Notes under the pieces: model-generated
The model's input: the letters and a program-made list of their open reading frames with translations, nothing else
Database searches by the model: none
What the model was told of the DNA's origin: nothing
Assembly: GCA_040902005.1 (NCBI GenBank)
Contig: JBBDYA010000081.1
Coordinates: forward strand, 63,827-93,747
Length of the DNA stretch: 29,921 nt
DNA from: Gemmatimonadaceae bacterium
GTDB taxonomy: Bacteria > Gemmatimonadota > Gemmatimonadetes > Gemmatimonadales > Gemmatimonadaceae
Direction of reading: 5' to 3'
Program-made: the position numbers and the translations under genes
Shown here: one piece after another, positions 14,325 through 29,921 of the stretch
Layout of the letters: each line of letters starts with the position of its first letter
How positions within the stretch are numbered: the first letter of the stretch is position 1

Positions 14325-15257
14325 TTAAGGCCGCTCCCCGGGATCATTCTCCCCGAGGAGGTCCTTGAGAGCACTTTCCCGCTCGGCGCGGTCCGCCGCT
14401 TCGTCCGCCACACGCATGCTCGCCAGCCGCCGGCGATCGCGGCGTCGGCGCGCAACGTACAGGGGTGTCAGCAGGAACAGGAAGAGCAGCGCCGCCAGCG
14501 TCACGTTGCTCGCCAGCGCCAGCGCGCCGTACTGCCGGCGCGTCTGCTGACGCCAGCGCTGCTCGAAGCCGGCGAGCGTCATTCCGTGCGCCCGGCGCAT
14601 CGCGGTGTCGAGGGAGCGGGTGTCCCTCCAGTAGCCCAGCAGCAGGGAGAGTCCGTGATCGGGACTGGCCCGCGCCAGCTCCGCGACCGCGCGATACGAG
14701 AGGGCATAGGCTGACTGCGCGGCGGTGGTGCCACCGGAGAAGGATGCTTCCAGCTCGTCCAGCGTGGGCATGCCGCGCAGCGCCAGGGCGAGGTTCGTCA
14801 TCAGCACCTCCTCGCGGCCCCATTCGCCGGCGGCGTAGCTGGCATAGCCCTCATCGAACCAGCGGGGCGGCAGGTTACCGAGATATTCGTGCAGCGCGAG
14901 GTGCGCCAGTTCGTGGCGCAGCACCGAGAGCGGATCGCCCGCGTCAGAACCCGATCGCTGGCCCTGCATCACGATGCGGCGGAACTCGGGAAACGCGACG
15001 GCGCTCCCCCATTCCGGAGTCGCGTCGCCAGCCCATTCGCGGAATCGCCGGTAGTCGGGCGCGATGGCGATGGTCACCCGCTGCTGCGGGCGCGGCATGC
15101 CCGGAAAGGTGTCGGTGGCGAGTGCGTGGGTCGCCAGCGACGACGCGAGGGTGCGGTCCCGCTCGAAATAGAGAAACTGGAAGCGCCCGCGGTCGAGGCG
15201 CTCCGGGGTGGTCTGGCCCTGAATGCGGAGCGGCAGCGCGAGGAGACTCCCCAGCAC
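14325..15257 (-). CDS. membrane-anchored HExxH metallopeptidase (peptidase MA-like/gluzincin domain); start uncertain
   Basis: LRHELAH plus downstream PRWFDEGYA. Hydrophobic N-terminus, and a C-terminal TM followed by RRRRDRRR. GTG at 15257 is the first start codon after the upstream stop. Confidence 0.75.
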   Translation of the reverse strand: MLGSLLALPLRIQGQTTPERLDRGRFQFLYFERDRTLASSLATHALATDTFPGMPRPQQRVTIAIAPDYRRFREWAGDATPEWGSAVAFPEFRRIVMQGQRSGSDAGDPLSVLRHELAHLALHEYLGNLPPRWFDEGYASYAAGEWGREEVLMTNLALALRGMPTLDELEASFSGGTTAAQSAYALSYRAVAELARASPDHGLSLLLGYWRDTRSLDTAMRRAHGMTLAGFEQRWRQQTRRQYGALALASNVTLAALLFLFLLTPLYVARRRRDRRRLASMRVADEAADRAERESALKDLLGENDPGERP

Positions 15258-15268
15258 CAGACTGAGGA

Positions 15269-16129
15269 CTAGGGCTCGCCCCCCTCCTCGACCGTCTTGA
15301 GTGCTTCCGCGCAGCGCTTCCCCCACGGGTTGAACTTGTTTGCCGCGAATCCGTCGCGCCACGCCTGCATCCCCTCGTCCTGCTGCCCGTTGAACCAGAA
15401 GGCCTTGCCCAGCTCGTAGTACGCCTCGATCAGGTTCGGACCGAGCACGAGCGTCTTCTGAAAGAACGTCTGCGCATCCTCGAACATGTCGCGCTCGAGA
15501 TAGACCAGTCCAAGATAGAAGTGCGCGTACAGCGTTGCCTTCTTGTCGTTGTCCAGGCGGATGGCGCGCGACAGATGCTCGATGGCCTCACCGAAGATCT
15601 TCTTCTTCAGGCAGATGTAGCCGACGTTGATGCGCGCGAGCGCGTTCTGGGGCTCGCGCGTCAGCACCTTCTGGAACCAGAGCAGGGCGTCGTCGTACTT
15701 CTCCTGGAGCATCAACGCCCAGCCGAGCAGCGCCTCGGACTGCGGCTGGTTGGGCGACAGCTCGATGGCTTTCAGGAGGGCCTGCTCCGCCGCGGGATAG
15801 TCGCCGAGCGACAGGCGACTCCAGCCCTTTTCGATGAACGTCGACGCGCCGATGTGGTCCGCGTGCACGATGGGCTTCTCGGCGCTGAATTCCGGCGCGA
15901 GCGTGGCGCCCGCCTGCATCGCCTTCCACTTGTCCACCAGCTTCTTGACGTCGTCCTTGAGCGCGGTGAGGTCCGCCATCTCCTGCTCGATCGATCGGAA
16001 GAAGGAGATGATCTCGACTTTCAGCGCGTCCCGCTGCGCGAGCGCGTCGGGGGCGTCGAGCCTGGCGTCGAGGTTGTTGAGGGTGGCGCGATGCGCGGTA
16101 ATGGCGCGCGCGACGATCTGCTCAGACAT
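15269..16129 (-). CDS. TPR protein with N-terminal coiled coil
   Basis: Starts MSEQIVAR (ATG 16129, 8-nt overlap with cheB). Heptad-like N-terminus followed by about 5 TPRs (LSPNQP, REPQNA, LDND, LGPNL). Confidence 0.85.
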   Translation of the reverse strand: MSEQIVARAITAHRATLNNLDARLDAPDALAQRDALKVEIISFFRSIEQEMADLTALKDDVKKLVDKWKAMQAGATLAPEFSAEKPIVHADHIGASTFIEKGWSRLSLGDYPAAEQALLKAIELSPNQPQSEALLGWALMLQEKYDDALLWFQKVLTREPQNALARINVGYICLKKKIFGEAIEHLSRAIRLDNDKKATLYAHFYLGLVYLERDMFEDAQTFFQKTLVLGPNLIEAYYELGKAFWFNGQQDEGMQAWRDGFAANKFNPWGKRCAEALKTVEEGGEP

Positions 16130-17183
16130 GGTGGTACAATATGTAACGGGTGATGGCGGCCGCCATGTCGGGGAGCGACACGACCAGATCCGCGCCAGCC
16201 AGCTGCAGCGCGGCCTGCGGCATTCCATAGATAGTGCAGCCGGCCCGGTCCTGGACCAATGCGCGCCCGCCCGCCGCCCGAATGGCCCGCAGTCCCTCCG
16301 CGCCGTCGCGCCCCATGCCCGTGAGCACGACACCGACGCAGCGCTCCCCGAAGGTGCCGGCCAGTGAGAGAAAGAGCGGATCCGCCGCCGGTCGCACGCC
16401 CCACACCGGCGGATCGTCGCTCAAGGCGATCCGCGCATCCTCGCGCCCGCCCACCAGCCGCATGTGGTGGCCGCCGGGCGCCAGATACACGCGTCCGGCC
16501 TGGAGCGTGTCGCCGTGCGCCGCCTCCCGAACGGGCAGCGGGCAGCTCGCGTCGAGCCGCTGCGCGAGGCTGCGCGTGAAGCCGGCGGGCATGTGCTGCA
16601 CGATCAGCACGGCCGCGCGCAAGTCGCCCGGGAGCTGCGGCATCAGCTCGGACAGCGCGCGCGGGCCGCCGGTGGACGTCGCGATGGCGACCACGCTCAG
16701 GGCCGGCTGACCCTCCACCGTGCGCGGAGCGCGCGCCGTCGCCGGCGCGGCGACGCGGCCCGCCAGCCCCGCGAGGTTGGCCTCACGGGCAGCGCGCAGC
16801 GCATCGAGCAACCGATCGCCCACCCTGGCCAGGTCCACGCTGACGGGACCCGACGGCTTGCGCACGAAATCCACGGCGCCCAGCTCCAGCGCGCGAAGCG
16901 TGAGGTCCTGTCCATGCGCCGTGGTTGCCGCGCTCAGCATGACCACGGGCCGCGGTGCCTCGCGCATGAGTCGCTCCAGCGTCTGGATGCCGTCGAGTTC
17001 CGGCATCTCGATGTCGAGCGTGACGATGTCGGGGTTCAGCGCCGCCACCTGCTTCAGCGCGTCGAGACCATTGCGGGCCGTGCCGATCACGCGGAATTCG
17101 TCGCACGCGCCGATGATTTCCGCGATCGTGCGCCGCATGAAGGAACTGTCGTCGACCACCAGCACCGAGGCCCTAGAGGACAT
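16122..17183 (-). CDS. cheB: chemotaxis response regulator methylesterase CheB
   Basis: Receiver domain VLVVDDS, TLDIEMP and FVRKP; esterase motifs TSTGGP, VQHMPAGFT and LTGMGRDGAEG. Confidence 0.95.
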   Translation of the reverse strand: MSSRASVLVVDDSSFMRRTIAEIIGACDEFRVIGTARNGLDALKQVAALNPDIVTLDIEMPELDGIQTLERLMREAPRPVVMLSAATTAHGQDLTLRALELGAVDFVRKPSGPVSVDLARVGDRLLDALRAAREANLAGLAGRVAAPATARAPRTVEGQPALSVVAIATSTGGPRALSELMPQLPGDLRAAVLIVQHMPAGFTRSLAQRLDASCPLPVREAAHGDTLQAGRVYLAPGGHHMRLVGGREDARIALSDDPPVWGVRPAADPLFLSLAGTFGERCVGVVLTGMGRDGAEGLRAIRAAGGRALVQDRAGCTIYGMPQAALQLAGADLVVSLPDMAAAITRYILYHHV

Positions 17184-17676
17184 GCGTTCCCCGTCGCAGC
17201 GTCCGGACCTCGAGCGCGCCATCGGCGATCCGGAACAGGACGCTGCGCCCCTGGTCGCCGCCGGTGTCCTCCGCAATCAGTGGAATGCCCGCGGCGCGCA
17301 GCGCGTCCCGCGCGGCCAGCACGTTCCGTTCGCCCACGTTGATGCCACTGGTGGCCAGCAGATTCGCGAACATGCTGGCCCCGCCGGCGAGCTTGGCCTG
17401 AAGCCGGCCAGGGATGGCGCCGCGGCCGCGCAGCGCCTCGACCATCGCGGGCACGGCGGTCTGGGCGAACTTGGCCGGATTGGTCACGTCCGTGGACATG
17501 GACGGATCCGGAAGCAGCACGTGCGCGAGCGCGCCGATCCCGGCCGAGGGGTCATGCATCGCGATCGCCACACACGAACCGAGGCCGATCGTCGAGATCA
17601 CCCCGTGAGTCGCGACCACGAATTGCGCGACGCGCACGCGGTGCTCGACCGCCGGCGGCAGCGGCGCGGCGCTCAC
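17173..17676 (-). CDS. cheD: chemoreceptor glutamine deamidase CheD
   Basis: TIGLGSCVAI, AHVLLP, AKLAGGASMF, NVGERN and EDTGG..GRSV. Confidence 0.94.
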   Translation of the reverse strand: MSAAPLPPAVEHRVRVAQFVVATHGVISTIGLGSCVAIAMHDPSAGIGALAHVLLPDPSMSTDVTNPAKFAQTAVPAMVEALRGRGAIPGRLQAKLAGGASMFANLLATSGINVGERNVLAARDALRAAGIPLIAEDTGGDQGRSVLFRIADGALEVRTLRRGTHVL

Positions 17677-18512
17677 GCCCGGCGAAAGATCCGCTCACGC
17701 GCGTCCACCGGCGCGAAGTGTTTTCGCATGGGACCGAACAGCGTCTCGACCTTGCCGAAGACGAGGAACCCGTTCGGCGCGAGCGCGGCGTGGAAGGACT
17801 CGAACAGCCGCTCCTGCGACTCCCGATCGAAGTAGATGAGGACGTTGCGGCACACGATGAGTTCGAGCCGCGCAAGCGGCGGGCCGTCGGAGAGCAGGTC
17901 GCCCACGCGGAAGCGCACGAGCCGGCGCACGTCGGGATCGAGGCGGAAGGGCGGGTCCGGCGCGAAGTACCGGGCGCGCAGATCCGCGGGCGTGTCGGCG
18001 AAATCCGCCTCGGCGAACTCGGCGCGGCGCGCCACGTCCAGGATCTGCCGGTCCACATCGGTACCGACGATGTGCAGCCGCGACAGCCGCTCGGTCGTGC
18101 CGGTCGCATGGGCGTACCGGTGAAACAGCGCCGCGAGCGAATACGCCTCATGCCCCGCGGCGCACCCGGCGCTCCACACGCGCACGTCACCGTGGGCTGC
18201 GTCCTCCCAGAGCGCGGGCACCACCTTCGCCTCGATGGCGGCGTACGCGTCCCAGTTGCGAAAGAGCTTCGTGACGTTGATCGTCAGCACCTGCATCAGG
18301 CGCTCGTATTCCGCGGTGTCCTCGTCCAGCAGGCGCGCGTACTCCGCGTACCCGAGCACGCCACGCGCCCGCATCCGCACCCCCACGCGCCGCTTGAGGC
18401 ACCGCTCCTTGTAGCTGGCGCAGGCAAAGCCGCGATCGCGCGTCACCTTGCGCATCAGGTCCGCGAATCCGTCGTCCGGCGCGCGCGTCGCCGGTGAGTC
18501 CGCGGTGGTCAT
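17673..18512 (-). CDS. cheR: chemotaxis methyltransferase CheR
   Basis: YKERCLKRR, LTINVTKLFRN, VWSAGCAAGHEAYSLA, GTDVD and IVCRNVLIYFD. ATG at 18512 overlaps the upstream stop (ATGA). Confidence 0.94.
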   Translation of the reverse strand: MTTADSPATRAPDDGFADLMRKVTRDRGFACASYKERCLKRRVGVRMRARGVLGYAEYARLLDEDTAEYERLMQVLTINVTKLFRNWDAYAAIEAKVVPALWEDAAHGDVRVWSAGCAAGHEAYSLAALFHRYAHATGTTERLSRLHIVGTDVDRQILDVARRAEFAEADFADTPADLRARYFAPDPPFRLDPDVRRLVRFRVGDLLSDGPPLARLELIVCRNVLIYFDRESQERLFESFHAALAPNGFLVFGKVETLFGPMRKHFAPVDARERIFRRA

Positions 18513-20131
18513 GCGGTTCCCGTCTGGATGGCCTCGAGATTGGCGCGGGCCAGGGTGTTCTCCGGATCCAGCTCGAGCGCGCGCCGCCAGCACCGCGCCG
18601 CCTCCTCCCGCTCCTCCCGGCGCAGCTTGATGTTGCCGAGCTTCAGGTAGACGTCGTCGCCGAGATCCGGATTCGCCTTCACGGCGCGATCGAACGCGTC
18701 GAACGCCTCCTCGTAGCGCGCGGCCCGGTAGTACAGGTCGCCGATGTTCTTGTGGAGCTGCGCCATCGCGGGATCGTCCGTGAGGCCGTGCTCGGCGGCG
18801 AGGAGCGCCTCGTCGTACGACCCGCGCCGCTCGTGCAGCGCGGCGAGGTTGTTGTGCAGTGCGGCCACGCGCGGGTGCATCGTGAGCCCCTCCTGGAGGA
18901 CTTCGAGCGCGCGCCCGAGATCGCCCAACAGCGCCGCGGCCAGGGCCGCGTAGTGGAACCACGCGGCCGACGGCTTGCCACTCCAGAACGATTTCGCCGC
19001 GCTCAGGGCGCGATCGGCCGCGTGCAGGTCGCCCATCATGAGTGACACCACGCCGAGCGACGTCTGGATGCGGGCGTCCTTGGCGCCGCCGCGCTTCGTG
19101 GCGTCCTGAAGCGCGCTGAGCGCCTCGGCGTACCGCCCCATCCGCTCCAGCGCGAAGGCCAGATTGTGGTAGGTGGCCGGCTTCGCCCCAGGGCGCGCGG
19201 CGGCGTCGACCAGCGCCTCGATCGCGTCGTCCCACTTGCCCTGTCGCAACAGCACCAGGCCCAGGTAGAACCGCGCGTTCGCGTCGTCCTTGTTCTGGTC
19301 GAGGACGTGGCGGAACTCGCGCAGCGCCTCCTCGTGCATTCCGGTGCGGTAGAAGGCGGTGCCCAGGTTGCGGTGCTCCTCCGTCTTGCCCGCGGGCACC
19401 GCCTGGAGGTTCACCTTGCTGTTGCGCCCCACCCGGTGGATCAGCCCCGCGGTCAACAGCCCGTACAGCGCCTTGCCCACTTCGAACTCCACCAGCCCCG
19501 CCGCCTCCACGAGACTCACGACGTCGCGACGGCCGTCCACATGCTGCAGCACCGCCTGCTGCTCGGCCGTGAGCGCGAGCTCGGTGGCCGCGAGCTTCCG
19601 CCAGTCCGCGTCGAACACCATGTCGAAGCTGGGGACCTTCTTCTCGATGAGACTCCACTCGTCCACCCGCCGCGCCCCTTCGAGCAGCAGCGATTCCGGA
19701 TTGATGGACACGAGCAGATCCTGACGCTCGGGGTGTACCTCCGCCTCGAAATTGAACGTCCCCTCGTTCCACGTGAACAACGTGTACACCGCTTCCTCGA
19801 TCTGCACGCGCACGTGCTCGTGCAGCGCGTCACGCGTGAGGAACTCCAGGTCCACCAGCAGGTCGCCAATGCGCTTGTCGCGGTGCTTGCCCTGCGCATC
19901 GATCGCCTGCTGCAGTTGCTCGGCCGTAATCGAGCCCGCCTTGACGAGCATGTCCCCGATCCGGTCGCGGCGGTTCACGATGGAGGCGTACGAGATGCGC
20001 CCCTTGTCGAAGTAGATGTAACCGAAATTGTTGCGATGCGTCACGCTGAGACAGCCGGTCTTCTTCCCCATCGAGAGCAGCTGGAGCACGTCGGGCAGCG
20101 ATGCCTCGCGGAGCGAGCCCTTGATCGCCAT
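18509..20131 (-). CDS. DUF4388 (PATAN-like) domain protein with MshEN-like insert and C-terminal TPRs
   Basis: MAIKGSL...LPDVLQLL...KKTGCL, YFDKGRI, W..GTFNF and LLLEGARRVDEW, followed by about 7 TPRs. The start overlaps the upstream stop (TGATG). Confidence 0.85.
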   Translation of the reverse strand: MAIKGSLREASLPDVLQLLSMGKKTGCLSVTHRNNFGYIYFDKGRISYASIVNRRDRIGDMLVKAGSITAEQLQQAIDAQGKHRDKRIGDLLVDLEFLTRDALHEHVRVQIEEAVYTLFTWNEGTFNFEAEVHPERQDLLVSINPESLLLEGARRVDEWSLIEKKVPSFDMVFDADWRKLAATELALTAEQQAVLQHVDGRRDVVSLVEAAGLVEFEVGKALYGLLTAGLIHRVGRNSKVNLQAVPAGKTEEHRNLGTAFYRTGMHEEALREFRHVLDQNKDDANARFYLGLVLLRQGKWDDAIEALVDAAARPGAKPATYHNLAFALERMGRYAEALSALQDATKRGGAKDARIQTSLGVVSLMMGDLHAADRALSAAKSFWSGKPSAAWFHYAALAAALLGDLGRALEVLQEGLTMHPRVAALHNNLAALHERRGSYDEALLAAEHGLTDDPAMAQLHKNIGDLYYRAARYEEAFDAFDRAVKANPDLGDDVYLKLGNIKLRREEREEAARCWRRALELDPENTLARANLEAIQTGTA

Positions 20132-22074
20132 CAGCGCGGATCCTCGATCAGCCGCGCGCCGATGTCCGGCAGGTGCCACACGATCTTCTCGTCATCGAGG
20201 AAATACGGATCGGCGGCGCGCACGTCGGGGACGCCCGGCACCGGAGCGCCGCCGTCGAGTTCCGCCCGGGCGATGGCGGTGCTCAGCGGCAGGCCGGCAA
20301 TGTCCGCCGCCGCCACCACGCGGTGGACGAGGCCGATGACTTCGCGCACGCTGGCGGCTGCCCGATCCGCGAGATAGCCAACCAGCGCGTCCCGATCCAG
20401 CGTTTCGACGTCATTCAGATAGTGCGCGTAGAGTTTTTCGCGCAGGGCCCGGTCGGGCACCTGCATCTCCACCACCAGGCCCCCCTCGAACCGCGAGCGC
20501 AGCCGGTCCTCCAGTCCCTTGAGCTGCCGCGGTTCGCGATCGCTCGCAAACAGCAGCTGCTTGCCCTCGGTGTGGAGCGCGTTGAAGACATGGAAGAGCT
20601 CCTCCTGCGTGCGCTCCTTGCCCGCCACGAACTGCACGTCGTCGATGACGAGCGCGTCGGCGCCACGATAGCGGATCCGCCAGCGGTCCACGGTGCCTTC
20701 CTGGAGGGCGGCGATCAGCTCGTCCATGAACTGCTGGGCGCTCACGCACGCCACTACGGCCGCGCCACCGCTCGCGTTGATCATCTCGTTGCCCACGGCG
20801 TTGACGAGATGCGTCTTGCCCACGCCGCTGGGCCCGTACACGAACAGCGGGTTGTAGCGCTTGCCCGGCTCCTCGATCACCGCATCCGCCGCACGCACCG
20901 CCAGCTGGTTGCTGGGACCCACCTCGAAGCCCGTGCGCGTGAACGCCGCCGACGGCCCCGGTGGCGGCGACGAGCCCGCGAGCGCCCGCGTGGCCAGGGC
21001 CTCCGCCTCCGCCACCCGCAGCGGATCGCGGAAGACCTCGTCGGCGCCGAGGGCGGGGTCCACCGCCGTGGCCTGCCCCTCGAACAGGCGCAGCCGGTCG
21101 ATGTTCGCGAAGTATTCCCGCAGTGCGCCCTCGAAGTCGGTCTTCGGCCCGGCATCCTGCAACAGCCGCTCGAGCGCGCTGGTCCGGTACCCCTCACCGC
21201 TCCAGTAGGCGACCGCCTCCGCCACCTTGATCTTCCACGGGTCCACATGCTGCGCCACCGCGGTGGCGATGTCAGACACGAAGCTCTGGAAGTCCAGGTT
21301 GCCGCGCCCGCCGGACACGCGCGAAGTGCGCATCGGCGTGGGCGTGCGCATCGGGGGCTCGGCACCCGGCCCGAACATCCCGCGGACCTGATCCGCGCGC
21401 ACCTGGTCTCCGCCCAGCGTCTGCGTGGCGATGATGCGATTCAGCGCGCCCTGGAGCTCGCGGATGTTGCGGAACTCCATCTGCGCGAGTTCCTCCAGCA
21501 CGCCCCCCTGGAACCGGACGCCGCGTTCGTCGCACCGGGCGCGCATGATCGCGATGCGCGTCTCGAAGTCCGGGGGCGCGATGTCCACGATCAGGCCGCC
21601 GGAGAGGCGCGTGATGAGACGCTCGTCCACATCGGGAATTTCGGATGGCGGCCGGTCGCTGGTCATGACCACCTGCCGTCCGGTGCCCTGCAGCGCGTTC
21701 AGCAGCCGGAGCATCTCCGCCTGTGTCTCCCGGCGCCCGGTGAGGAACTGCATGTCATCGAGCAGCAGCACGTCCACCCGCCCATACCGCTGCTTGAACC
21801 GGTCGGTTTCGTTCATGGCGATCGCCGCGTGCAGTTGCTCCACGAAATCGTCGAGCGTCACGTACTCCACGTTCATGTCCGGCTGGCGCTGCTGGACGTA
21901 GTTGCCGATCGCGCTGATGAGGTGCGTCTTGCCCAGACCCGATCCGCTGTAGACGAAGAGCGGGTTGTAGGTGAGGCCAGGCTGCTCGGCGACGGCACGC
22001 GCCGCGGCGACGGCCAGCCGGTTGGCGGACCCGGTGACGAAGTTCTCGAACCGGTGGCGCGTGTCGACCTGCAT
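20131..22074 (-). CDS. protein with two tandem DnaA-type AAA+ domains, lacking DnaA domains I, II and IV
   Basis: Domain 1: FENFVTGSANRLA, YNPLFVYSGSGLGKTHL, LLLDDMQF, TSDRPP, RLITRL, NIRELQGAL. Domain 2: FEVGPSNQLA, YNPLFVYGPSGVGKTHL, LVIDDVQF, TQEELFHVFN, ASDREP, RLRSRFEGGL, SVREVIG. Confidence 0.88.
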   Translation of the reverse strand: MQVDTRHRFENFVTGSANRLAVAAARAVAEQPGLTYNPLFVYSGSGLGKTHLISAIGNYVQQRQPDMNVEYVTLDDFVEQLHAAIAMNETDRFKQRYGRVDVLLLDDMQFLTGRRETQAEMLRLLNALQGTGRQVVMTSDRPPSEIPDVDERLITRLSGGLIVDIAPPDFETRIAIMRARCDERGVRFQGGVLEELAQMEFRNIRELQGALNRIIATQTLGGDQVRADQVRGMFGPGAEPPMRTPTPMRTSRVSGGRGNLDFQSFVSDIATAVAQHVDPWKIKVAEAVAYWSGEGYRTSALERLLQDAGPKTDFEGALREYFANIDRLRLFEGQATAVDPALGADEVFRDPLRVAEAEALATRALAGSSPPPGPSAAFTRTGFEVGPSNQLAVRAADAVIEEPGKRYNPLFVYGPSGVGKTHLVNAVGNEMINASGGAAVVACVSAQQFMDELIAALQEGTVDRWRIRYRGADALVIDDVQFVAGKERTQEELFHVFNALHTEGKQLLFASDREPRQLKGLEDRLRSRFEGGLVVEMQVPDRALREKLYAHYLNDVETLDRDALVGYLADRAAASVREVIGLVHRVVAAADIAGLPLSTAIARAELDGGAPVPGVPDVRAADPYFLDDEKIVWHLPDIGARLIEDPR

Positions 22075-22082
22075 CACATCGC

Positions 22083-22682
22083 CTAGCGCGCCGCGCCCGC
22101 GCTCAACCGCTTGAGCACGAGTTCCGAGATGCCGCGCAGCGTTTCGAACACGCCGGGGCCGTGCAGGGCGTCGGCCGGATAGTCGGGCACCCCGCGAAAG
22201 TTGACCGTGTCCGACAGCTCGGCGGTGGTGAGAATCAGGTCGCTGGGCAGGTCCTGCTTGTTGTACTGGATCACCAGCGGAATCGTGCGCGCGTCCACGC
22301 CCTGCTCCGCCAGGTTCTGATGCAGATCCTGAAAGCTCTCGATGTTCTCCTGCAGCAGCCGCGCCTGACTGTCCGCGACGAACACGACGCCGTCCGCGCC
22401 CTGGAGCACCAGCTTCCGCGTCGCCTGGTAGTACACCTGCCCCGGCACGGTATACAGCTGAAAGCGCGTGGTGAATCCGGAAATCGTGCCCAGGTCCAGC
22501 GGCAGGAAATCGAAGAACAGCGTGCGGTCGGTCTGTGTCGCCAGCGAGACCATCGTGCCTTTGCGATCCTCCGGCACCTGCCCGTAGATGTAATGCAGAT
22601 TCGTCGTCTTCCCGGACCGCCCCGGTCCGTAGTAGACGATCTTGCACGTGATCTCGCGGGTCTGATAGTTGACTAAGGACAT
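22083..22682 (-). CDS. mglA: MglA-family small Ras-like GTPase
   Basis: KIVYYGPGRSGKTTNL, TDRTLFFDFLP, LYTVPGQVYY, ADGVVFVADSQ and YNKQDL. Confidence 0.95.
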   Translation of the reverse strand: MSLVNYQTREITCKIVYYGPGRSGKTTNLHYIYGQVPEDRKGTMVSLATQTDRTLFFDFLPLDLGTISGFTTRFQLYTVPGQVYYQATRKLVLQGADGVVFVADSQARLLQENIESFQDLHQNLAEQGVDARTIPLVIQYNKQDLPSDLILTTAELSDTVNFRGVPDYPADALHGPGVFETLRGISELVLKRLSAGAAR

Positions 22683-22691
22683 AGATGCGGG

Positions 22692-23162
22692 CTACGGCCG
22701 CCCGAACAATTCGGCGAGATTCCTGTTCAACTCGCCCTCAAAGTTGGCGCTCAACACCGGCCCCTGCGGCCCGACCGGCGGCGGGGCGGCGCTGGCGAGA
22801 TTCGTCTGGAGCTCCTCGAAGTACATGCGCACGAGACCGAGCGAGCTGTCCTGGTCGAACACTGTAAGAAAAATGTAGGGGCCGCGCGCGGTTTCCGCTT
22901 CCGCGAGAAAGATCTGCCGACCGGTGCCGGCATGCAGTCCGCGAAACGGTTTGCCCTCCAGCTGCCGCCCGAGTTCCGACGACGACGCGTGGATCGCCGC
23001 GGCCAGCGCGCACGCGGACATCACGTCCACCGCCCGCACGAAGCCGTGTTGCGCCAGCACCTGTCCGCTCGGATGCAGCAGCAGCGCGAGCTGGACGCCC
23101 GCGTCCAGCACGAACGCGCGCAGCGGCGTCTCGATCCAGGGCTCCACGGAGGTCTTGATCAC
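22692..23162 (-). CDS. mglB: MglB-like roadblock/LC7 protein (putative GAP)
   Basis: SGQVLAQHG, ALAAA and VFDQDSSLGLVR resemble the MglB core. A Pro-rich linker leads to a C-terminal amphipathic helix. Lies 9 nt upstream of mglA. Confidence 0.8.
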   Translation of the reverse strand: MIKTSVEPWIETPLRAFVLDAGVQLALLLHPSGQVLAQHGFVRAVDVMSACALAAAIHASSSELGRQLEGKPFRGLHAGTGRQIFLAEAETARGPYIFLTVFDQDSSLGLVRMYFEELQTNLASAAPPPVGPQGPVLSANFEGELNRNLAELFGRP

Positions 23163-23506
23163 GCGAGCGCCTCAGCGGACCGCAGCATCTCCACCCGGAT
23201 CATCCCCACGTTCGCGTCACGCTCGGCCACCACGACCAGCACCAGCTCGTCGCCACCGATCAGGCACAGCCGCCCGGACTCGGCTTCCAGCTGCATGAAG
23301 CCGGTTGCGCCGAACCCTGCGGCGGTGGCCGAGCGGCGCGCCTTGCGGTAGAGCGACGCGGACAGCGCCGCCACGCGACTGCCGTCCTGTCCGATCTGCA
23401 GGTTGGAATCGATCGCAATGCCGTCCGTGGCGCTGACGACGAGGCTGGCCCGCACACCGCGTTGCCGGATGAGCGCGTCGAGCACGGCGGTGAATCGCGT
23501 GGTCAT
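23159..23506 (-). CDS. roadblock/LC7 domain protein
   Basis: GVRASLVVSATDGIAIDS, VAALSASL, LEAESG and NVGMIRVEM. Overlaps both neighbours by 4 nt. Confidence 0.87.
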   Translation of the reverse strand: MTTRFTAVLDALIRQRGVRASLVVSATDGIAIDSNLQIGQDGSRVAALSASLYRKARRSATAAGFGATGFMQLEAESGRLCLIGGDELVLVVVAERDANVGMIRVEMLRSAEALA

Positions 23507-24333
23507 GCGAGCCCGGTCCCGCCGCCGGCCTTGAGCCACGCCTCCACCCGCGTGAGGCACCGATCGAGCAGGCGGCGCAACAACCCGAGCGGCGTCGCGG
23601 GCGCGCCCGCCAGCACGAGCATCCCGCCATCAGCCAGCGCGCCGCGGGCGGGCGAGAGTGACACCACCGCCTCCTCCGCCTCGAAGATGATCGAGCGCCA
23701 CGCGCCGATGCCGAGGTGTCGGGTGGCGCGGAAGGCCTCATCCGAGACGCCGGACAGGCTCGCGCCGACGTCCTGCGCCACGTCACGTCCGTCGGCGGCG
23801 TAGTACGCCCCCGCGAGCACGAGGCCGTCCTTCGTGAGCAGCATGGCGGTCTGGTCGTTCGTCAGCAGGCCCGCGAAGAGCAGATGCGGGTCGGACGGGA
23901 GATCGGGCGGCAGCGATTCCACGGACACGACGACGCCGGAGGACCGCCGCACGGTATCGATCGCCGCCGAGATGTCGGCGTCCTCGCCGATGCCCTGCGC
24001 CTGCACCAGCAGGCGCTCGGCTTCCTCGTGCGCGCCCTGCTGGAAGCGGACGAACGCCATCCCCTTGATCGCGCCCACGTGCCCCGGCAGCAGGCGGAGG
24101 ACCATATCCCATTCATCGAACGCGTCCTGCAGATCGCCGCGGTCCGCATGCACGCGCGCGAGCAGATCGTGCGCCTCGGGATTGTGGGGATGCCGCTCCA
24201 GTCCACGCGTGGCCACCTTGCGCGCCAGGTCGAGCTGCCCCTGGCGTCGCAGCGCTTCGGCGAGCGGGAGGAAGACCAGGCTGGCCGGATCGCGCGCGAG
24301 CTCGTCGCTCCAGGATCGCACGTCGTCAGCCAC
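23503..24333 (-). CDS. TPR + roadblock/LC7 fusion protein
   Basis: N-terminal TPRs (LAEALRRQG, ERHPHNPEAHDLLA, LLPGHVGA). C-terminal AMLLTKDGLVLAG...GASLSG...LGIGAW..IIFEAE...PLGLLR. Confidence 0.8.
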   Translation of the reverse strand: MADDVRSWSDELARDPASLVFLPLAEALRRQGQLDLARKVATRGLERHPHNPEAHDLLARVHADRGDLQDAFDEWDMVLRLLPGHVGAIKGMAFVRFQQGAHEEAERLLVQAQGIGEDADISAAIDTVRRSSGVVVSVESLPPDLPSDPHLLFAGLLTNDQTAMLLTKDGLVLAGAYYAADGRDVAQDVGASLSGVSDEAFRATRHLGIGAWRSIIFEAEEAVVSLSPARGALADGGMLVLAGAPATPLGLLRRLLDRCLTRVEAWLKAGGGTGLA

Positions 24334-25291
24334 CGGTGTGCTCCTCCAGCGCGGTCAGCAGGCGCGACGCCGCCTCCAGCGCGGCCTGCACCCGCGGCAC
24401 GGCGGGATCCGCGGGGGCCAGCGCGAGAAACTGCTCCCAGGCCACGCACGCCGTCCGCAAATCACCGGCGCGCGCCGCGGTGAATCCGCGATCGAGGTAG
24501 ACGGTGGCGTCTGGCGTGTGGGTGCGCGCGGCCGCCTTCGCTATCGACACGCTGATGCGCTGCCGGGCCGGGCGGCGGATCTCGATGACCCCGGTGGTGA
24601 CCAGGCCATAGGCGATCTTCGCGATCTCGAACTCGGCGCGACCAAGCTCGCCGGCGATCGCGCGCAGGTCGCGCTCGCCGTCGAGCATCGTGAGCACTTC
24701 CCACTCGTGCGGCAGCAGGTCGAGCTGCGTCTCGTGCTCCGGCGACACGGGTGCCAGCGACGGAATCACCGACACGTCGGGCACCTTCGACGCAATGCGC
24801 GACCATTCGTCGATGCGCCGCGCACTCTCCATCAGTAGCGACTCCGTCGCGATGTCGAGCCGCGCTTCTCCGGGGACATCGTCGATCTCGCGCTCCTCGA
24901 AGGAGAAGAACCCCTCCTGCCACTCCATCAACTCGAACACCACGCGCTCCAGTCGCTGCCGCAGCAGGCGATCCAGATCCCGCGCGCTCAACGCGCCCGC
25001 CTGGACGAGGATGTCGGTGGCGGTCGTTCCGTTGGCCAACTGGGCCTCGAACGCCCTGGCCTGCTCCAGATCGTGCGTGCCCACGCGCCCCGAGCGCAGG
25101 AGGATGTCGTCCAGGGTGGCCGGGTTGCTGCGGACATCCGCGAACACTACGCGGCCGCGCTCGAAATACACGGTCCCTTCGTCCTTGCGCGAGTCGGAGG
25201 TCACCCGCAGCATCCCCGTCTTCCGGCTGAGATCCAGCAGCTGGAAGACGTCGTGCACGCTGAGTTCGTGGAGTGGGCCCTCGATCGCCAT
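24326..25291 (-). CDS. DUF4388 (PATAN-like) domain protein with a C-terminal TPR-like helix pair
   Basis: MAIEGPL...DVFQLL...RKTGML, YFERGRV, W.EGFFSF and LLMESARRIDEW; paralogous to 18509-20131. Confidence 0.85.
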   Translation of the reverse strand: MAIEGPLHELSVHDVFQLLDLSRKTGMLRVTSDSRKDEGTVYFERGRVVFADVRSNPATLDDILLRSGRVGTHDLEQARAFEAQLANGTTATDILVQAGALSARDLDRLLRQRLERVVFELMEWQEGFFSFEEREIDDVPGEARLDIATESLLMESARRIDEWSRIASKVPDVSVIPSLAPVSPEHETQLDLLPHEWEVLTMLDGERDLRAIAGELGRAEFEIAKIAYGLVTTGVIEIRRPARQRISVSIAKAAARTHTPDATVYLDRGFTAARAGDLRTACVAWEQFLALAPADPAVPRVQAALEAASRLLTALEEHTGG

Positions 25292-28153: not shown

Positions 28154-28774
28154 TTACGCCACGCGAACCGCCCGCAGGATCGCGGACAGCGACGGTGGGT
28201 CCGGCAACAGGAGAAAGAATCCGCGCAACGGCTGCTCCGTTCCCTTCACGAAGAACTCGCTCTCGACGCAGAAGACGAAATCGCGGTCGGAACCGAACTG
28301 GAGATATGCAGTGGTCAGCACGGCACTCGACATGTCCACGGCGAGGCTCGGCGGCGAGGGCAGCAGCAGCATCCCCATGAAATCGCTCAGTGCGTTCATG
28401 TACGCGCTGCTCAGGATGTTGCCGGCCTCCTTGATCGCCGACTGCTCCAACTCACCCAGCTCCGTCGAACTGGCGGCCGGGCGCCGCAGCAGGAGCTCGG
28501 CAAGCCGGATCGCCACGTCCCGCGGGAACACCAGGAGCGTGCGCCCGGTCAGGTCGCCCAGCATGTGCAGGAGGACGGCGGCCACCGGCTCCTCGGGGGC
28601 CGCTACCACCGGCGGTACATCCTCGAGGCGCGTGACGTTGATGCGCGGCACGCTGATCATGATCGTGGAGCCGATCATCTGGGACAGCGCGGTCGCGGCA
28701 TGCCCCGCGCCGATGTTCGCGACCTCCCGGAGCGCATCCAGCTGTTTCGGATTGAGAGAGCGAATGTCGTCCAT
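28154..28774 (-). CDS. cheC: CheC-family CheY-P phosphatase
   Basis: Two E-x-x-N active-site motifs: DALREVANIGAGHAATALS and SAIKEAGNILSSAY. Confidence 0.93.
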   Translation of the reverse strand: MDDIRSLNPKQLDALREVANIGAGHAATALSQMIGSTIMISVPRINVTRLEDVPPVVAAPEEPVAAVLLHMLGDLTGRTLLVFPRDVAIRLAELLLRRPAASSTELGELEQSAIKEAGNILSSAYMNALSDFMGMLLLPSPPSLAVDMSSAVLTTAYLQFGSDRDFVFCVESEFFVKGTEQPLRGFFLLLPDPPSLSAILRAVRVA

Positions 28775-28779
28775 GGGCG

Positions 28780-29921
28780 TCAGGAAAGGCCACCAACATC
28801 CAGTATCAGCGCGGGCGCGCCGTCAGTGAGTATGGTTGCCCCGCTGAAACATCGCAGCCCGTCGCGCAGCTGATCCATCCGTTTCACGACGATGTCCTGC
28901 TGCCCGACGAGGTCGTCCACCACCAGCGCGGCGCGCTTGTCCGCCACCTCGAACACCACCGCCTGTTCCAGTTGATCGGGCGCGACGGCGGGCAGTCGCA
29001 CGACATCCCGCAACCGGATCAGCGGCAGCACGTCCTCGCGCAGCATCAACACCTCGCGTCCCCGCAGCAGGGACACGTTTTCGGGAAGCAGCTCCACCGT
29101 CTCGCGCACGTGCGTCGTGGGAATCGCGTACTGCTCGGCGTCCACGCACGCCAGGATGGCACGCACGATGGCGAGCGTCAGGGGCAGCCGGAGCGTGACG
29201 GTCGTGCCGCGCCCGGCCACGCTCCGCACGTCCACGCTGCCGCCCAACTGGCGCGCGCGCGCGAGGACGGCGTCGATTCCCACCCCGCGCCCCGACAGGT
29301 CCGTGACCCGGTCCGCCGTCGAGAATCCGGGACGCGCGATCAGGCGCAGCAGGTCGTCGTCCGAGAGCTCGCCGTGCGATGCCTCGAGCAGCCCGGTCTC
29401 CCGCGCCCGCGCGGCCACCCGGTCGCGGTCGATCCCCCGGCCGTCGTCGCTCACGCGGATCGCCACGGCGTTCCGGTCGCGTGTGGCGGACAGCAACAGG
29501 CGCCCCGCGGCTGGCTTGCCGCCCGCCACGCGCTCGACCGGCGACTCGATGCCGTGATCCACCGCGTTCCGCAGCAGGTGGACGATCGGGTCGCCGATCT
29601 CGTCGAGCATGGACCGGTCGAGCTCGATCCCCTTTCCCTCGATCGTGAATTCGACCTGCTTGTCGAGTCCGCGCGCGGCGTCGCGCACCAGGCGCGGAAA
29701 GCGATCGAAGACCTGTCCCACCGGCACCATGCGACTCGTCACGATCTCGTCCCGGAGTTCCCCGATGAGCCGCGACGCCTGCGCCACGGCGTCGGTGAGC
29801 GCCTCGCTGCCCGCCACGCTCACCAGCTCCTGCAGGCGGGCACGCGAGATCACCAGCTCGCCCACGAGATTCATGAGTGTATCCAGCCGCCGCGCGTCGA
29901 TCCGGATGCTCCGGGGGGGGG
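28780..29921 (-). CDS. cheA: chemotaxis histidine kinase CheA, 5'-truncated by the window end
   Basis: SIRIDARRLDTLMNLVGELVI (dimerisation), HLLRNAVDHG, DDGRGID, PGFSTAD, GRGVGID, LPLTLAI and a CheW-like tail (GQQDIVVK, SGATILTDG). The Hpt and P2 domains lie outside the window. Confidence 0.95.
   Translation of the reverse strand, partial: PPRSIRIDARRLDTLMNLVGELVISRARLQELVSVAGSEALTDAVAQASRLIGELRDEIVTSRMVPVGQVFDRFPRLVRDAARGLDKQVEFTIEGKGIELDRSMLDEIGDPIVHLLRNAVDHGIESPVERVAGGKPAAGRLLLSATRDRNAVAIRVSDDGRGIDRDRVAARARETGLLEASHGELSDDDLLRLIARPGFSTADRVTDLSGRGVGIDAVLARARQLGGSVDVRSVAGRGTTVTLRLPLTLAIVRAILACVDAEQYAIPTTHVRETVELLPENVSLLRGREVLMLREDVLPLIRLRDVVRLPAVAPDQLEQAVVFEVADKRAALVVDDLVGQQDIVVKRMDQLRDGLRCFSGATILTDGAPALILDVGGLS

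Follow-up and report, generated by a model that had tools for sequence, protein, structure and literature searches.

A tandem DnaA-type AAA+ ATPase paired with a TPR protein in the Gemmatimonadota, likely re-used in polarity or pilus signalling

The window analysed here, a 29,921-nucleotide (nt) stretch of DNA from a Gemmatimonadaceae bacterium (GCA_040902005.1, contig JBBDYA010000081.1), encodes on its minus strand a protein of 647 amino acid residues which possesses two DnaA-type AAA+ modules and which is, by the defining tests, neither DnaA nor Hda. Directly downstream lies the gene for a tetratricopeptide repeat (TPR) protein with a PATAN (DUF4388) domain and an MshEN-type motif for cyclic di-GMP (c-di-GMP). 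Based upon the architecture of the ATPase, the separate canonical DnaA of the same genome and the constancy of this gene pairing, we incline, if only slightly, to the view that the protein is a signalling ATPase linked to c-di-GMP, one that probably serves type IV pili and is tethered to its partner by its C-terminal tail. In other words, an engine of replication has probably been put to a new use in polarity or pilus signalling. Each part is of a known kind, while their combination, and what appears to be a use outside replication, are new; to our knowledge the known ATPases of the DnaA clade (DnaA, Hda, DnaC/DnaI and IstB) all act on DNA or on replication or transposition machines. A conserved, phylum-wide member linked to a c-di-GMP receptor and to an MglA/Che operon would carry the DnaA clade into signalling, and would supply a definite candidate for the output of a chemosensory operon found mostly without flagellin, in an abundant and little-studied soil phylum.

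Architecture of the ATPase and its relationship to DnaA and Hda

Translation reveals no internal stops in the 647-residue open reading frame (ORF). Pfam reports two Bac_DnaA (PF00308) matches (whole-protein E 1.4e-114) and finds no match to DnaA_N (domain I, PF11638) or to the helix-turn-helix Bac_DnaA_C (domain IV, PF08299); the DnaA model TIGR00362 aligns in two stretches, and the Hda model TIGR03420 scores 170, under its cut-off of 194.8. Neither Pfam nor NCBIfam matches a PilB/T2SSE-type ATPase domain in the protein. Walker A reads YSGSGLGKT in module 1 and YGPSGVGKT in module 2, Walker B reads DDMQF and DDVQF, respectively, and SDRxP, RLxxR and xRE are seen in both. The original prediction, made from the sequence of the window, had described two complete modules with these motifs and no DNA-binding domain, which is confirmed by the translation and the Pfam matches. 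The serine in place of glycine at the start of the first Walker A, to which it had also drawn attention, is present and proves to be a family trait rather than a peculiarity (S in 16, G in 8 and A in 7 of 31 sequences).

The AlphaFold model (mean predicted local distance difference test, pLDDT, 81.7; predicted template modelling score, pTM, 0.45) contains two AAA+ folds and an all-helical domain at residues 262-365, for which an ESM Atlas search returned nothing; for the whole protein the hits were confined to Gemmatimonadota clusters of the "DnaA/Hda family" and to short fragments of DnaA. The helical region that had been proposed between the modules therefore stands, and the accompanying spacer PMRTPTPMRT is poorly conserved, the linker (residues 237-260) being loose and of low confidence in the model, as is the tail. 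The top PDB fold match is domain III of Bacillus subtilis DnaA, and comparison with 8BV3 gives 44% identity over 235 columns and a TM-score of 0.91 by target. The likeness to DnaA domain III (PF00308; 8BV3/8BTG, T. maritima 2Z4R, A. aeolicus 1L8Q/2HCB/3R8F) extends to the fold, the motifs and the initiator-specific motif, whereas two modules per chain, the lack of domains I and IV, the new helical domain and the conserved tail set the ATPase apart from DnaA, as does the location of its gene away from the origin in the presence of a canonical DnaA.

In sequence the ATPase is much closer to DnaA than to E. coli Hda. With Hda/HdaA it shares a DnaA-type AAA+ fold without domain IV, and its module 2 conserves the arginine-finger face; Hda acts by donating an arginine finger. 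It differs from Hda in possessing two modules, although single-module relatives exist, in falling under the Hda model cut-off, and in lacking a clamp motif: the patterns QLxLPL and QLxLF, which we take to be those for sliding-clamp binding, occur in none of 114 loci (47 hand-picked for diversity and 67 from a similarity search), as had been predicted.

The source genome contains three PF00308 matches, namely DnaA and the two modules of the ATPase, and no separate Hda-like gene is found among them. Its canonical DnaA (461 residues; domains I, III and IV) is encoded on contig C120, is followed by dnaN, and is the sole PF08299 match in the genome; the ATPase gene does not lie next to dnaN at the origin region. 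The presence of this dnaA-dnaN pair, which had been anticipated, rules out a replacement for DnaA. Misassembly or the joining of two genes is ruled out by 107 full-length homologues (625-670 residues) that align end to end. The doubts voiced with the original prediction are thus allayed: no helix-turn-helix was detected, the relatives mostly carry both halves as one gene, and another dnaA exists. Public records label members of the family "chromosomal replication initiator protein DnaA" or "DnaA/Hda family protein", which constitutes an annotation trap.

The partner protein, the distribution of the pair and the C-terminal tail

The tandem motif of the partner consists of two 24-residue RLGxxhhxxGhhxxxxLxxxLxxQ units with a short spacer, set inside the PATAN domain, and it matches the c-di-GMP motif that Wang et al. 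described in 2016 (PMC5013675, accessible part), an article whose two supplement files do not mention DnaA. In the source genome the second glycine of the second unit is altered. Judging from the motif match, the partner probably binds c-di-GMP through this insert. The insert is found in 103 of the 105 PATAN partners that adjoin an ATPase, the other two being cut by contig ends. The 1-nt overlap of partner start and ATPase stop seen in the window is present in 60 of 105 loci, and in 87 of 105 the gap is no more than 10 nt.

Named relatives of the ATPase belong to the Gemmatimonadota, and the inter-module region is present in 199/301 genomes of the phylum (a tally that takes in four genomes flagged as unpublished, which are used in no other count). 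By family it is found in 55/70 genomes of this family, 121/125 of the next, 10/48 of the family designated f7 and 0/23 of f6. Both modules are carried by one ORF in 100 of the 114 loci, two of which (L047 and L052) are frame-disrupted; they are split between two ORFs in two loci, 11 loci have a single module, and one is cut by a contig end. The partner lies directly downstream in 111 loci and the remaining three end at a contig edge. The upstream GTPase gene, which we take to be mglA and which the original prediction had emphasized, adjoins the ATPase gene in 95 of 113 loci (L078, at a contig edge, was left out) and is absent next to it in 18, which rules out an obligate link; the emphasis was misplaced, since it is the downstream partner that is found in all 111 uncut loci. 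In ten f7 loci the order is rluA, ATPase, partner, peptidase, and neither che nor mgl genes lie near them, while six loci from two distant families encode one module plus the tail, followed by a TPR-only gene. The minimal unit, judged by these f7 and single-module loci, is therefore the ATPase and a TPR partner. The smallest natural form (L042; G202:C11, 9389-10177) is a protein of 263 residues with one degenerate module and the tail but no helical domain, and it still lies beside an intact partner.

A short acidic/aromatic tail in place of domain IV had been predicted and is indeed present; it extends to residue 647 and carries a strongly conserved motif. The consensus is EKxVWxWPxxxxRLIEE, the W-containing pattern occurs in 105/114 loci, and the tail is retained in the single-module forms. 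It is of low confidence in both monomer models, which do not support self-docking. When tail residues 613-647 were modelled together with the whole partner, the interface score (ipSAE) was 0.85 (0.85, 0.85 and 0.86 in separate runs), compared to 0.02 for the best of three control complexes. Of 157 solved pairs, 116 reach this mark, as do 2 of 215 mismatched ones; both counts are rough with our own alignments. Contact agreement between runs is at least 85% and the pLDDT of the partner at least 71. The modelled tail runs along the TPR groove (partner residues 284-494), off the PATAN and MshEN regions, and its interface takes in partner residues 490-494, which are lost in loci without the ATPase. 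The tail is thus predicted to clip into the groove of the partner.

Conservation of the modules, proposed mechanism and alternatives

Residues were mapped onto B. subtilis and E. coli DnaA, with sensor I/II, box VII and AID labelled as we presume them to be. The residue functions used are those given in the available portions of PMC10721633 and PMC3287180. In B. subtilis DnaA, R202 and E228 read guanine while E183/N187 of the next protomer read adenine, and the same nucleobase-pocket residues also make protein-protein contacts (PMC10721633, available portion). Module 1 retains the Walker A lysine, the Walker B DD and the sensor I aspartate in 31/31 tandem forms, and an acid (E or D) at position 183 in all of them, but loses I190, N187, R206 and the FF pair; I190 is replaced by H or polar residues and N187 mostly by E, and in this protein the two positions are H and E, respectively. 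In module 2 (B. subtilis-equivalent numbering) R202 is conserved in 30/31, E228 in 31/31, R260 in 30/31, R264 in 31/31 and L269 in 31/31. The single-stranded DNA-contact set (E. coli V211/R245; B. subtilis E183, N187, I190, R202, K222, E228) is mostly lost in module 1 and mostly kept in module 2 of this protein, which has the equivalents of I190, K222 and E223; K222 is T in 11 of the 13 distant module 2 sequences. Among these distant forms the Walker A lysine of module 2 survives in three, the P-loop has decayed in ten and the lid is gone, yet the arginine-finger and initiator-specific-motif face is kept across the phylum. In f7, module 2 is catalytically dead by its motifs. The single-module forms are relaxed (sensor I aspartate in at most 2/11, R260 in 3/11), and module 1 is degenerate in most of them.

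A domain phylogeny against DnaA and Hda had been suggested with the original prediction. Modules 1 and 2 form separate clades and are not sisters in both trees, the second of which took a subset of 14 tandem pairs, 10 random TPR fusions and 10 random other fusions, but the deep branches are poorly supported and Hda provides a long root.

The simplest reading of the conservation is that the arginine-finger face of module 2 meets the pocket of module 1, as in the DnaA filament, and that the tandem would therefore be a pre-built head-to-tail pair. Module 1, from its invariant residues, would bind and hydrolyse ATP, the tail would bind the TPR superhelix of the co-translated partner, and the partner would bind c-di-GMP through its MshEN-type insert. 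The weakest step of the scheme is the last, in which c-di-GMP, joined in most lineages by MglA and the Che pathway, would determine the place and time of assembly of the complex; the output would likely be type IV pili. Such a scheme would resemble the cis control of MshE/PilB by MshEN, rebuilt in trans with an ATPase of the initiator clade.

Several known systems offer partial parallels. MshE and PilB (PMC5013675, accessible part) likewise link a tandem RLGxxLxxxG...Q motif to an ATPase, whereas here the linkage is predicted to be in trans, the ATPase is initiator-clade and not of the secretion type, and the motif lies inside the PATAN domain of a separate TPR protein. In Myxococcus, MglA acts on pili via the TPR protein SgmX, and MglA, MglB and SgmX operate under Frz (PMC7519303, in the sections available). 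The present loci resemble that system in bringing together MglA, roadblock, TPR and Che proteins, with pili present and flagellin mostly absent; they differ in forming one operon with CheC/CheD, and in that the ATPase-partner pair survives without mglA. The same sections describe no DnaA-type ATPase and call the Myxococcus pathway c-di-GMP-independent. PATAN regulators bind the PilB motor in cyanobacteria (PMC9090330, citing Jakob 2020 and Han 2022; part of the text), and PATAN-receiver proteins (PixE and relatives) control a pilus motor ATPase, whereas the PATAN protein here has an MshEN insert and TPRs and no receiver, and the modelled contact is tail-to-TPR and not with PATAN. Wuichet and Sogaard-Andersen (PMC4316618) report Group 1 MglA in Gemmatimonadetes with PATAN neighbours, and the available main text does not mention DnaA. 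No published description of the tandem ATPase was found in open-licence PMC and bioRxiv articles.

Loci that have lost the ATPase offer further clues. Ten genomes keep the operon or partner without it, and their partners are shortened to 426-477 residues, the last TPR missing in 10/10; in nine of the ten the MshEN insert is cleanly deleted. These nine form one clade (FastTree support 0.966) in a species-proxy tree made with FastTree only and with the partner itself among its sequences; the tenth genome (G112), which has kept the insert, is separate.

With regard to output, a GGDEF match is found in 47/47 ATPase-positive genomes versus 2/13 module-less f6/f7 genomes. PilT-family genes occur in 46/47 of the former, with two or more in 45, and a pair of such genes is found in just 1/13 of the latter. 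Flagellin is found in only 12/47 ATPase-positive genomes and not in the source genome, so that a flagellar output is not favoured. As the groups are kin, pilM is near-universal and GGDEF genes do occur in genomes without the module in other parts of the phylum, this contrast only points a direction. As an aside, 11 of the 13 module-less f6/f7 genomes (e.g., G056, G059, G062, G069) lack any GGDEF match at E 1e-25 and carry no more than one PilT-family gene. This pattern suggests that c-di-GMP signalling was lost wholesale in these lineages.

The DnaA module also occurs in a wider class of fusions. A full-library search with a single-module form as query returned P0142 and P0145, 1.9-kiloresidue proteins with an N-terminal MshEN and two DnaA-type modules (NF053729, 57.7 and 67 bits). 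Among 120 large relatives, 16 join an MshEN motif to a single DnaA-type module or a pair of them, separated by long helical spacers (P0142, P0145, P0275-P0280, P0282-P0284, P0301, P0314, P0315, P0324, P0337); many of the 120 have TPR arrays. Domain IV was matched in none of the 117 large relatives tested, and some of the relatives are named Ca. Fermentibacteria, Sumerlaeota or Hydrogenedentota. Tentatively, and with somewhat less than even confidence, we propose that the DnaA AAA+ module was recruited, probably several times, as a general c-di-GMP-controlled non-replication switch, acting in trans through the tail-TPR pairing in Gemmatimonadota and in cis in the MshEN-DnaA and TPR-DnaA fusions of other lineages. 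If this holds, these proteins would be the first class of ATPases from the initiator clade to work in signalling and motility and not on DNA. In its boldest form the switch would also feed polarity state back to the real DnaA.

Several observations weigh against a c-di-GMP-linked signalling ATPase tethered by its tail. In the six single-module loci from two distant families the partner is TPR-only and lacks both PATAN and MshEN, and c-di-GMP is for this reason not part of every version. The MshEN-DnaA fusions form no supported clade with the ATPase family and may be independent recruitments; since the trees do not join them, they show recurring association and not common descent. As for the tether, TPR grooves bind peptides readily and TPR-peptide complexes are common in the PDB, and the control complexes were made with unrelated proteins and not with the other TPR proteins of the operon. 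Interface residues within 250-465 of the ATPase-less partners are no more eroded than other conserved positions (0.70 vs 0.67), so that, truncation excepted, selective erosion of the interface is not seen. The model gives no confident arrangement of module 1 relative to module 2 (pTM 0.45). The losses in the ATPase-less genomes amount to one event for the MshEN deletion and at most two for the TPR truncation, and are suggestive, not statistical; moreover G112 lost the ATPase yet kept the insert, and all ten of these genomes retain GGDEF genes. Finally, pilM and PilT are each present in 78/80 genomes, which makes pilM uninformative as a discriminator, and because both are near-universal in the sample their presence does not single out pili.

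The main alternative, which we consider unlikely, is that the protein regulates the real DnaA. Module 2 would dock ATP-DnaA and cap the filament or trigger hydrolysis like Hda, and the tail would tie it to c-di-GMP and polarity, thereby coupling replication to lifestyle or asymmetric division. Consistent with this, the protomer-contact residues of module 2 are kept nearly as strictly as in DnaA, no separate Hda was found among the three PF00308 matches, and the operon lies just upstream of a division/cell-wall cluster, near an ORF that is presumably divIVA-like. It is opposed by the clamp-motif search, by the 11 loci without any module 2, by the many near-complete genomes with a normal DnaA in which the ATPase gene was not found, and by the 40 wide loci mapped, in none of which it adjoins dnaA or dnaN. 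In addition, the sensor residues of module 1 relax where module 2 is missing, and therefore an internal partner fits better than DnaA. The original prediction had left a choice between an ATP-dependent signalling scaffold and a DnaA regulator; the former is the better supported, the latter having gained no direct support.

It is decidedly improbable that the protein is instead an ATP-bound structural hub which oligomerises on the TPR scaffold and organises a chemosensory array or a division-site complex, and which would show little catalytic cycling and have no direct action on pili. The dead module 2 of f7 and the degenerate module 1 of most single-module forms would suit such a hub, as would the fact that the genome has just two chemoreceptor matches, both outside the operon, but the ten f7 loci retain ATPase and partner without che or mgl nearby and the catalytic residues of module 1 are invariant in tandem forms. 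Least credible is a DnaA-like nucleobase pocket at the module 2/module 1 interface, which may bind single-stranded nucleic acid or a guanine nucleotide (in DNA uptake, for example, or as a direct nucleotide sensor), since the conserved R202 and E228 of module 2, its I190, K222 and E223 equivalents here, and the acid at 183 of module 1 are offset by the changes at N187 and I190 of module 1, by the T at K222 in distant forms, and by the protein-protein contacts that the same residues serve.

Neighbouring genes and minor observations

The ATPase gene belongs to a minus-strand run of cheY, cheA, cheC, a large TPR gene, a short PATAN gene, a TPR gene, two roadblock genes, mglA, the ATPase and its partner, which continues past the partner with cheR, cheD, cheB, a TPR gene and a peptidase gene before reaching the division/cell-wall cluster (Table 1). 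The MglA GTPase and roadblock proteins are encoded together (family-level matches), and mglA ends 8 nt upstream of the ATPase gene. In the short PATAN paralogue the insert is of comparable length but lacks the RLG motif, and the large TPR protein is a possible SgmX-like effector. The source genome also encodes two MshEN-bearing PilB/GspE-like ATPases.

Table 1. Features of the ATPase locus; coordinates refer to the window
Feature	Position	Strand	Evidence or remark
Tandem DnaA-type AAA+ ATPase, 647 residues, without DnaA domain I or IV	20131..22074	minus	translation, Pfam, NCBIfam-type models, AlphaFold
Module 1, residues 4-232	21379..22065	minus	nucleotide pocket conserved, single-stranded DNA-contact positions changed
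Variable Pro-rich linker, residues 237-260	21295..21366	minus	alignment, model
Family-specific all-helical domain, residues 262-365	20980..21291	minus	without Pfam match
Module 2, residues 378-607	20254..20943	minus	all motifs intact in this protein
C-terminal tail motif, residues 621-647	20134..20214	minus	predicted binder of the TPR groove of the downstream protein
Partner gene, 540 residues, PATAN (DUF4388) with MshEN-type insert and TPR array	18509..20131	minus	1-nt overlap of its start with the ATPase stop
MshEN-type tandem c-di-GMP motif, partner residues 57-107	19811..19963	minus	NF053729, 50.8 bits, cut-off 38
TPR groove holding the tail in the model, partner residues 284-494	18650..19282	minus	complex model
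MglA-type small GTPase	22083..22682	minus	Arf / small_GTP family matches
MglB-like Roadblock/LC7 protein	22692..23162	minus	weak Pfam match, E 6e-4
Second Roadblock/LC7 protein	23159..23560	minus	Pfam
TPR protein with C-terminal roadblock-like part	23503..24333	minus	Pfam; roadblock by inspection only
Second, shorter PATAN (DUF4388) protein	24326..25291	minus	Pfam; insert fails c-di-GMP model
Large TPR protein, 905 residues	25295..28012	minus	Pfam
cheC	28154..28774	minus	Pfam, NCBIfam
cheA, 3' part	28780..29921	minus	5' part, cheY and cheW-like ORF past window edge
cheR	17673..18503	minus	Pfam
cheD	17173..17676	minus	Pfam, NCBIfam
cheB	16122..17276	minus	Pfam, NCBIfam
Coiled-coil/TPR protein	15269..16333	minus	Pfam
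Peptidase_MA-like HExxH protein	14325..15362	minus	Pfam; kept in many minimal loci

The Peptidase_MA-like protein has a likely signal peptide and a C-terminal membrane helix. In minimal loci its gene still adjoins those of the ATPase and the partner, whereas none was found in the ten ATPase-less loci. An ATG TGA start-stop pair at 22074-22085, in the mglA frame, follows the mglA stop and overlaps the ATPase start. A second mglA-like gene (G000:C58:29375-30049) is 51% identical to the first and carries an insertion. Near positions 93700 and 95000 of G000:C81, short N runs that follow G-homopolymers break the cheA and cheW-like frames and are likely assembly gaps. Farther upstream of the window (G000:C81:96396-97689), two adjacent lipoprotein signal peptidase-like ORFs, recognized by inspection, precede rluA.

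Two additional groups of large relatives differ in their fusion partners. P0223 and P0300-P0391 (~1360 residues) consist of a large TPR array with a DnaA-type AAA+ module at its end; some begin with a zinc-finger-like part, and several are named Ca. Sumerlaeota or Hydrogenedentota. In P0209, P0221, P0331, P0352 and P0354 the DnaA-type AAA+ module is fused to DUF835, which is mostly archaeal, to HEAT repeats or to zinc ribbons.

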